Shown in pieces: positions 62,051-63,078 of a stretch of 64,000 nucleotides of DNA; positions within the stretch are counted from its first letter, which is position 1; each line of letters opens with the position of its first letter. A program made the translations under genes and the position numbers. The stretch is from Candidatus Brockarchaeota archaeon (lineage in GTDB: Archaea > Thermoproteota > EX4484-205 > JAAOZP01): positions 379 through 64,378 of the forward strand of contig JAFNIT010000004.1 in assembly GCA_017601345.1 (NCBI GenBank), written 5' to 3'. Under the pieces are notes generated by a model. That model saw only the letters and a list, made by a program, of their open reading frames with translations. It searched no databases and was not told the origin of the DNA.

Positions 62051-63078
62051 TTACAATCCCTCGGGGCCAAGGTATACGGTGTCCTCAGCGTCGGGGCCAG
62101 TACCAACTATGGTGACTGGCACTCCCGTTTCATCCTGAATCTTCTTGAGGAAATCTATGCATTCTCGTGAGAGGGACTCCCTCCTCCTGGCTTTGGAGCA
62201 CTCTGGGAAAAGAACATCCACCTTGGTTACTGCTATCTGTGTAGCTCCGTTAACCCTGGCTGCACGTTTAGCCATCTGGAAATTGAATGGCGCAGCCCTC
62301 CTGAGCCTGCCCGTTACAGTACCCCTCTCCACAAAGCCTCTTTTCTCAGCTTCTTCAGGAGAAAGCTCATTCTCAAGAGGTCCTTTGCCCACTCTCGTCA
62401 CAAAGCTTTTTAGAACAAGTATGACTTCGTCAACCTTCTTCGGACCTACTCCAACTTCGCTGCAGACTGCTGCAGCAGTAGTGTCCCTCCCAGTTACGTA
62501 CGGATATGTACCATGGTAGAGGCTTAGGTAGAAGCCTTGCGTACCCTCTAGGTGAATCGTCTCTCCCCTGTCTAGTGCAGAGTTAACTTCTTCAGAAACA
62601 TCCGTAACATATTTTTTCAGCTCGGGCAGGTCTCTGACGAGCTTTGCCTTCCTAGTAACCCTGTCTGCGAGAGCGGGGGAAACACCCGTGCCAGTGGTGC
62701 CTATGAACTCCCTGAAAAAGTCACTACCCCTGTCAGCATCGATATGCTTCTGCTCGATTACAGAAGCCTTCTCGTCGATGAATACTCTTCCCTCGACGCC
62801 GAGCGTCTCAACTTCGCTCATAAACACTTTAGGGTCTACGTTAGCCCCGGCACCTATAAGCAGTCTTGTCTCAGGAACCAGGAATGCACTCGGCACCATT
62901 CTAAGCCTGTATGTATTGCCCTTGTAGACTACGGTGTGCCCAGCGTTTACAGAACCGACTCTAACAGCTATCTTCGGATGCTCCTTAAGTGCCAGGAATG
63001 CGGCGACTTTTCCTTCTAGGGACCTTCGAACGGTTTTCCCTCGTCGCCAAAGAATCCTGACACTATTACTGTAAGCAT
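62051..63078 (-). CDS. purA: Adenylosuccinate synthetase, reading frame interrupted by a 20-nt insert in the P-loop codons (candidate intron; otherwise a pseudogene)
   Basis: Exon 1 (63078-63036) is MLTVIVSGFFGDEG(K). Exon 2 (63015-62051) is (K)[29 protein letters not shown]...GTTGTGVSPA...TQG...VTGR. The spliced length is 1008 nt (335 aa plus stop). Confidence 0.75.
63016..63035 (-). other. Candidate bulge-helix-bulge intron in purA mRNA (sense AACCGUUCGAAGGUCCCUAG)
   Basis: Central helix AGGG/CCCU, 3-nt bulges AAA and AGA on opposite strands, inner helix ACC/GGU plus 7-nt loop, outer helix GGCGAC/GUCGCC. Cutting after nt 2 of each bulge removes exactly 20 nt and restores GDEGKGK. Confidence 0.55.

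Follow-up and report, generated by a model that had tools for sequence, protein, structure and literature searches.

Known introns removed by tRNA-splicing enzymes from protein genes

Two protein genes with a bulge-helix-bulge (BHB) intron, cbf5 and HVO_1309, are counted in a 2023 review, which expects that more will be found (PMC10485636). Here we describe a candidate for a further one. It lies in purA, the gene of adenylosuccinate synthetase (PurA, short archaeal type), on the minus strand of a 64-kb stretch of a Candidatus Brockarchaeota metagenome-assembled genome (MAG; contig JAFNIT010000004.1). The whole of this stretch is called the window. Comparison with related genes indicates that the 20 nucleotides (nt) at 63035..63016 are very probably an intron in the purA coding sequence, of the type cut by the splicing endonuclease EndA and joined by the ligase RtcB. 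If so, purA would be the second archaeal protein-coding sequence known to lose an intron to the tRNA-splicing enzymes, joining cbf5, which has stood alone in this for more than twenty years. A second gene, encoding a core metabolic enzyme and found in several deep uncultured lineages, would show that such splicing of messenger RNA (mRNA) is no one-off. With a well-defined substrate of about 120 nt and its naturally occurring compensatory variants, recognition of RNAs other than tRNAs by the endonuclease could also be studied, and the case raises the question of mRNA splicing under coupled transcription and translation.

The cbf5 introns of Desulfurococcales and Sulfolobales are the closest described system. 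They are relaxed BHBs that split the codon of a catalytic residue between the first and the second base (Yokobori 2009, PMC2738675). According to the BHB rule, cleavage takes place after the second nucleotide of each bulge (PMC2738675). The purA element is likewise a short, relaxed BHB in archaeal coding sequence. In both genes, the predicted cuts lie between the second and third bulge nucleotides, and an active-site codon is split between its first and second base, that of the catalytic Asp in Cbf5 and that of the P-loop residue Lys15 in PurA. Both introns are patchily distributed, which points to gain and loss, and both are mis-annotated by gene callers. In contrast to the RNA-modifying enzyme Cbf5, PurA is a metabolic enzyme. 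The lineages are also different, the intron sequences have no relationship, and the purA element does not belong to a cbf5-type family, as it does not lie at the cbf5 catalytic Asp codon. In purA, a long conserved stem between exon 1 and exon 2 carries the BHB, unlike in cbf5. Splicing of cbf5 was shown by complementary DNA sequencing and by in vitro cleavage, whereas the purA element is known here from sequence comparison alone. Watanabe 2002 and Yoshinari 2006 are said to deal with the cbf5 pre-mRNA intron.

The first-pass annotation of the window had proposed the purA intron and had named cbf5 as the documented archaeal precedent. This holds for coding sequences, where cbf5 is the sole case, but a BHB intron is also known from the 5' untranslated region of Haloferax volcanii HVO_1309 (Schwarz et al. 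2020, PMC7714728). With HVO_1309, as proposed for purA, the tRNA splicing endonuclease acts on an mRNA and not on a tRNA or rRNA. Its intron, unlike that of purA, is 46 nt long, leaves the reading frame uninterrupted, is cut by an alpha2 enzyme and was found by circular RNA sequencing. The non-canonical introns of archaeal tRNAs resemble the purA element in helix and bulge geometry, in size (16-17 nt versus 16-22 nt), in the cut rule and in the presumed enzymes. They differ in that the tRNA body holds the exons, whereas in purA this would be the part of a dedicated exon-exon stem within the coding sequence. Marck and Grosjean 2003 and Sugahara 2008 reportedly treat these tRNA introns. The splicing of eukaryotic HAC1 and XBP1 mRNA is a comparable spliceosome-independent process, in which an endonuclease and a ligase change the reading frame, and in metazoans the ligase is RtcB. 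There, however, the endonuclease is IRE1, the recognition motif is a twin stem-loop, and a role in stress signalling is established.

In the searchable literature, nothing was found that joins adenylosuccinate synthetase, intron, archaea and splicing endonuclease, nor anything on protein-gene introns of Brockarchaeota. We hold with considerable confidence that purA has an EndA-type coding-sequence intron in a new gene and in new lineages, to which the exon-exon stem and a stop codon in every variant are added as features.

The purA locus and the predicted fold of the insert

Translation from the minus-strand ATG at 63078 gives MLTVIVSGFFGDEGKPFEGP and ends after 20 codons at a TAG (63018-63016). 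What is left of PurA is encoded in a different frame, which closes with the stop codon at 62053-62051. Excision of the 20 nt (AACCGTTCGAAGGTCCCTAG) results in a 1008-nt open reading frame (ORF) of 335 amino acids (aa) with an intact P-loop, GDEGKGKV, which binds GTP and is essential. The sequence statements of the first-pass annotation on this locus are all correct. The same product is obtained from two adjacent 20-nt excisions (63034..63015 and 63033..63014), and no other tested excision gives it. At the predicted spliced junction, GACGAGGGAA is joined to AAGGAAAAGUC.

In the window, purA is a single locus that is matched by tblastn in two pieces, corresponding to exon 1 and exon 2. The spliced PurA aligns without gaps to residues 4-326 of Pyrococcus horikoshii PurA (2D7U; E = 2.6e-101), with the GDEGKG motifs aligned, and matches the Pfam family PF00709 (E = 1.2e-73). 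Only after removal of the 20 nt does the product combine a full PF00709 domain with the N-terminal GDEGKGK of the short archaeal type. The start codon and the peptide of exon 1 are preserved across clades despite synonymous changes. The TATA-box-like sequence CTTTATAC is a putative archaeal promoter element of purA, and a motif GCTTTATACTCC is kept upstream of exon 1 in related loci (L001, L006 and L088-L091).

The 60 nt around the site fold as had been described, with an outer helix GGCGAC/GUCGCC, a 1x7 internal loop, a central helix AGGG/CCCU (H) and an inner helix ACC/GGU (h') with a 7-nt loop. The geometry corresponds to the relaxed HBh' type, having a helix of 4 base pairs (bp) between the splice sites and a 3-nt 5' bulge flanked by H and h'. 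The 3' bulge is followed by 7 further unpaired nt (63014-63008), forming a 10-nt unpaired stretch opposite 1 nt. In a strict hBHBh' motif, the 3-nt 3' bulge is closed directly by helix h, whereas here GGCGAC/GUCGCC begins 7 nt beyond. Because of this open 3' site, the motif is classed as a relaxed BHB. The earlier description of the outer helix as relaxed was apt, and we extend this helix below to a long exon-exon stem.

Recurrence of the insert in related genomes

The purA loci compared here stem from GTDB species genomes and JGI metagenomes, with further ones retrieved through exact protein look-up. The P-loop is interrupted in 22 independent loci, including the window, and contiguous (GD[ET]GKGK) in about 152. 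The alignment of relatives suggested in the first-pass annotation thus mapped where the insert is present and absent, and it also revealed covariation in the inner hairpin. The insert lies at the same codon in all 22 loci. There are 13 distinct inserts, with lengths of 16, 17, 20, 21 or 22 nt, in 14 junction types. They are distributed over at least four deep lineages, namely Brockarchaeota-like genomes, Nezhaarchaeota and two further Thermoproteota clades. The MAGs derive from hot-spring samples, among them the Brockarchaeota bins JZZ.bins.4 and DRTY-6 and bins from Kamchatka, and L088-L091 trace back to JGI samples. The window's clade has seven insert variants, each of 20 nt, and the Nezhaarchaeota genome L059 has an insert of 16 nt. 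Inserts of 17 and 16 nt are found in a clade with CdvA-purA synteny (L081, L087), and inserts of 21 and 22 nt in a clade (L082-86, L172-174) where purA stands between purB and the L22-S3 ribosomal operon.

Every variant has the same order of elements: AGGG, AAA, a hairpin, CCCU (CCCA in three junction types), and AGA or AAA. A cut after the second bulge nucleotide restores the frame, rebuilds GDEGKGK and leaves a complete ORF of 331-336 aa in 14/14 junction types. What had been noticed for the window, that the BHB rule gives precisely the junction that is needed, holds for each of them.

The recurrence of the insert bears on the possibility that the 20 nt are an assembly or sequencing artefact and absent from the real genome. 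The source is a MAG, and other frame errors are present at A-runs in the window. On the other hand, the insert site recurs in 22 loci that were sampled and processed independently (NCBI, JGI, ENA and Logan), the junction sequences of L082-L085, each from a different one of four samples, are identical, and a structured insert of 16-22 nt is unlike a homopolymer error. Because the interrupted loci come from different samples and assemblies, an assembly artefact is excluded in our judgement, and its probability is negligible.

The lengths of the inserts bear on another possibility, programmed recoding, in which the ribosome frameshifts or hops over the insert on an uncut mRNA, as in gene 60 of phage T4. 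A stop codon after the take-off region and a hairpin give the insert a superficial likeness to gene 60, and the take-off and landing codons are both Lys in two of the 13 variants (L171 and L059). In the other 11 variants, however, the landing codon is GAA or GAG (Glu) and the take-off codon AAA or AAG (Lys). The lengths cover 0, 1 and 2 modulo 3, and as a result no single direction of frameshifting works. Even the in-frame inserts of 21 nt contain a UGA, every insert holds an in-frame stop, and frameshifting would leave 5-7 surplus residues within the P-loop. Recoding also leaves the fixed 4-bp helix, the 3-nt bulges and the exact junction given by the cut rule unexplained. We know of no ribosomal bypassing in Archaea, and we consider recoding very unlikely.

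Covariation and the exon-exon stem

For the structure statistics, the 14 junctions were aligned with MAFFT and analyzed with RNAalifold; 3' partners slid by 1-3 columns served as a control, together with 500 shuffles. RNAalifold, unguided, recovered the outer helix, H and the inner helix. In the explicit structure, 92.3% of the cells of the alignment are paired, compared with 31-55% when the partners are slid. The three G-C pairs of helix H are invariant in 14/14 junctions, and its A-U pair is present in 11. The inner hairpin has 3-5 bp across the variants, with two-sided changes at 5/5 pairs (A-U/G-C, C-G/G-C and U-A/U-G/G-C), and the observed covariation score was matched by none of the 500 shuffles. 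The exon strand GAG GGA A is present in all 14 interrupted genes versus 14 of 124 distinct intron-less genes (11%).

The BHB is carried by a stem that is formed between exon 1 and exon 2 and consists of two helices, and possibly a third, in the seven members of the window's clade. Helix P1, closest to the intron, is paired in 100% of cells and is predicted de novo by RNAalifold. Helix P0 is present in the minimum free energy (MFE) folds of five of the seven members, with 98.6% of cells paired, and its one-sided changes keep the pairing. The weakest is a possible helix P-1, which is found in MFE folds with 92.9% of cells paired. In P-1, the start codon is predicted to pair with GAGCAU (62983-62978), which may structurally mask the 5' end of the mRNA. 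For the stem as a whole, 97.3% of cells are paired versus 34-45% when slid. Its pairs are mostly invariant, and the few one-sided changes retain pairing. In the other clades, the structure is closed about 55 nt downstream by another helix, GGGGCGAU/AUCGCCCC, of which L172 has a compensatory GAC/GUC variant. We infer that the exon-exon stem stands in for the body of a tRNA, keeping the exon halves together for ligation.

Selection and distribution of the interrupted genes

The ratio of nonsynonymous to synonymous substitution (dN/dS) is 0.03-0.15 between interrupted genes, with synonymous sites near saturation. Judged by this ratio, the interrupted purA genes are under strong purifying selection and functional. 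These values argue against a reading in which the insert is disabling and purA has become a pseudogene or has been replaced by another enzyme. Such a reading draws on two disrupted GFO/IDH/MocA paralogs in the window and on the gene callers, which handle purA as truncated. No further disruption is present in any of the 14 junction types, exon 1 is conserved with synonymous changes, and in four deep lineages the insert occupies a single site and shows compensatory changes. A search for a second purA, which had been recommended in the first-pass annotation, found none in the window, which has one locus, or among the best 80 genome hits, where each MAG has a single one. The purB gene is intact at 9537-10967. 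We regard inactivation of purA as exceedingly improbable. The BHB intron first proposed from the window alone is strongly supported in the related sequences by recurrence, the cut rule, covariation, the strand GAG GGA A and the signature of purifying selection.

Selection appears to act on the RNA as well. Synonymous codon differences between intron-bearing genes amount to 0.18 in codons 1-25 versus 0.52 in the remainder, and in an intron-less sister clade to 0.25 in codons 1-25 versus 0.31 elsewhere; the compared pairs are not independent, and the Fisher p-value for the depletion therefore overstates its significance. Only in the intron-bearing clade is synonymous change in codons 1-25 about three-fold lower than elsewhere in purA, which suggests a constraint at the RNA level, matching the conserved exon-exon stem.

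A stop codon in the frame of exon 1 is present in 13/13 intron variants (window, L001, L006, L059, L081, L082, L086, L087, L091, L168, L169, L171 and L172). In the window's clade, it is part of CCC UAG or CCC UAA at the helix-bulge junction; the remaining clades have it within the loop of the hairpin. The stop may have been selected to prevent an aberrant protein from unspliced mRNA. The in-frame stop in every variant, the 25 frozen flanking codons and, in the window's clade, the pairable start codon could also mean that the intron is a conserved expression gate and not a passive passenger, but this seems rather unlikely to us. If true, PurA would be made only after EndA and the GTP-dependent RtcB had acted, and AMP synthesis would be coupled to the supply of GTP or to tRNA-processing capacity.

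In a rough neighbour-joining tree of PurA, intron-bearing lineages are intermixed with lineages that lack the intron (P0014; P0011-13 with L002-5 and L015; P0018 and P0032) inside one superclade, and the Nezhaarchaeota copy is set apart. Such an interleaved tree indicates repeated loss, repeated gain or transfer, as has been argued for cbf5. From its distribution, the purA intron appears to be old or recurrent, having been lost or gained several times.

Proposed splicing route and evidence against it

By sequence comparison, the pre-mRNA would fold into an exon 1/exon 2 stem (P0 and P1) that is topped by AGGG/CCCU, the 3-nt bulges and the inner hairpin. Following the BHB rule, EndA would cut behind the second nucleotide of each bulge. 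The exon-exon stem would keep the two halves together, and RtcB would ligate GGA A to AA GGA AAA, which would rebuild the Lys15 codon and the P-loop GDEGKGK. Unspliced mRNA would yield only a peptide of 20 residues, because the intron holds an in-frame UAG.

Several observations weigh against splicing at this site. The single-sequence fold is not exceptional compared with shuffles (z = -0.61). A single-sequence fold alone is therefore no better than chance, and the case is built on comparison. Helix H has an A.A mismatch in the three junction types with CCCA, and a G.A mismatch is also present in the inner helix of the window's insert. An endonuclease of strict specificity would probably not cut the 3' site. 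An exact look-up of 10 predicted spliced proteins in a collection of 15 billion proteins found 0, and no correctly joined full-length PurA was present among the cluster members. The genes of EndA and RtcB are absent from the ORFs of the 64-kb window, as is that of cbf5. Ordinary frame disruptions exist in other genes of the window, so restoration of the frame alone would not persuade.

Two database proteins were considered as products of a spliced or intron-less gene, and both were rejected. P0018 (331 aa, from a 1.3-kb contig), considered as an assembled spliced transcript, shares only 65-70% identity with the interrupted genes and hence belongs to a separate intron-less lineage. P0121 (334 aa), which falls in one 90% cluster with the window's gene, was considered as an intron-less allele and proved to be the window's gene misread through the intron. 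A window-wide scan for BHBs with an ORF-joining filter gave 143 matches, mostly trivial joins of neighbouring genes over spacers, and was uninformative. The very short exon 1 caused the filter to miss even purA.

A tRNA-Pro gene with two non-canonical introns

The window contains a tRNA-Pro(GGG) gene that is relevant to the specificity of the splicing endonuclease. The first-pass annotation had seen a tRNA intron at 52319-52335 with a geometry like that of purA. This was right (AGCC/GGCU, with bulges UGA and AGG), and a second intron of 16 nt is added here. With both introns removed, a 75-nt tRNA is obtained that has 21/21 standard cloverleaf pairs. ARAGORN with default settings and Rfam at gathering thresholds found no tRNA in the window, where Rfam had no matches at all, and ARAGORN -i miscalls the gene as a malformed 95-nt tRNA-Ala(GGC). 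Running ARAGORN on exhaustive excisions gave no discrimination for the placement of the D-arm intron, which was resolved by hand and by the cloverleaf check. Cleavage of introns at non-canonical positions is confined to the (alpha-beta)2 and epsilon2 endonucleases (PMC5829648). These types of endonuclease are the ones linked to relaxed BHB cleavage. The introns at positions 15/16 and 34/35 of the tRNA-Pro are thus indirect evidence for a splicing endonuclease of broad specificity in this organism. The coordinates of the tRNA gene and of the purA features are collected in Table 1.

Table 1. Positions in the window of the predicted purA splicing features and of the intron-containing tRNA gene
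Feature	Position	Strand	Remarks
Putative TATA-box-like element CTTTATAC	63111..63118	-	starts 40 nt upstream of purA ATG; read from sequence
Predicted purA exon 1 (43 nt), ATG to GGA A (MLTVIVSGFFGDEG + first base of Lys15 codon)	63036..63078	-	tblastn match to residues 1-15
Predicted 20-nt BHB intron AACCGUUCGAAGGUCCCUAG with in-frame UAG	63016..63035	-	BHB rule, covariation, in-frame stop
Predicted purA exon 2 (965 nt including stop), begins AA GGA AAA GUC	62051..63015	-	spliced product matches 2D7U and PF00709
Central helix H, 5' strand AGGG (exonic, codons GAG GGA)	63038..63041	-	pairs with 63021-63018
Central helix H, 3' strand CCCU (intronic)	63018..63021	-	CCCU in 11 junction types, CCCA in three
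5' bulge AAA	63035..63037	-	invariant in 14 junctions; predicted 5' cut at 63036/63035
Inner hairpin h' (ACC-G-U UCG A-A-GGU)	63022..63034	-	3 bp, G.A mismatch, U-A pair
3' bulge AGA	63015..63017	-	every junction has AGA or AAA; predicted 3' cut at 63016/63015
Closing helix P1, 5' strand UGGCGAC (Phe-Gly-Asp codons)	63043..63049	-	pairs with 63007-63001
Closing helix P1, 3' strand GUCGCCG (Val-Ala-Ala codons)	63001..63007	-	alignment, RNAalifold
Extended stem P0, 5' strand AGUGUCAGGA (exon 1)	63055..63064	-	10-bp helix with 62997-62988
Extended stem P0, 3' strand UCCUGGCACU (exon 2)	62988..62997	-	MFE folds, pairing counts
Possible helix P-1, 3' strand GAGCAU	62978..62983	-	pairs with start-codon region AUGCUU (63078-63073)
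tRNA-Pro(GGG) with two non-canonical BHB introns	52281..52388	-	introns 52373..52358 (16 nt, position 15/16) and 52335..52319 (17 nt, position 34/35)

Public annotation of the lineage

By their labels, the closest database proteins belong to Thermoproteota or Candidatus Brockarchaeota. The accession of P0121 is MBO3799836.1; it begins with MLWRRGKTVRRSLEGKVAAF, the wrong-frame reading through the insert, and is identical to the window's gene downstream, so that the window belongs to this Brockarchaeota MAG or to one of the same strain. P0005 (366 aa) also reads through the intron in the wrong frame, and the other calls for this purA lineage are N-terminally truncated to 282-315 aa, without a P-loop. 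The P-loop is missing in every public purA call seen for the lineage (MBO3799836.1, MEM1547464.1 and other accessions). As these annotations are without a P-loop, a defective version of PurA could enter metabolic reconstructions, and the problem may extend to further genes. BHB introns in protein genes could even be common in uncultured Thermoproteota, hidden by gene callers that silently truncate the genes, but we rate this as rather unlikely.

Neighbouring and other genes of the window

The purA gene ends a replication and division cluster (52892-63895) that encodes Orc1/Cdc6, a winged helix-turn-helix protein, the large and small subunits of RFC, GINS, MCM, a Hel308-like helicase and CdvA, and it is followed by a DUF72 gene. 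The order helicase-CdvA-purA-DUF72 is kept in L169-L171, and the helicase-CdvA-purA portion in L168.

Two tandem GFO/IDH/MocA oxidoreductase paralogs at about 2180-4130 on the minus strand are both disrupted, have no BHB and served as a control for true disruption. In gene A, two compensating 1-nt shifts at A-runs are needed for the motif AGKHVLLEKP, and gene B has two frameshifts and an in-frame stop. Their split ORFs were considered as further introns and rejected, given the 1-nt frameshifts, the in-frame stop and the absence of a BHB. The pair are pseudogenes or reflect homopolymer errors.

A second intervening element in a conserved nucleoside triphosphatase motif region of the window occurs at the protein level. 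The SMC protein encoded at 40787-44683 on the plus strand (1298 aa) has an intein-like segment (PF14890, residues ~96-171) inside its N-terminal ATPase head. The window also has two paralogous ATP_bind_1 (GPN-loop GTPase-like) genes of similar length, at 11647-12402 on the plus strand and at 49819-50592 on the minus strand.

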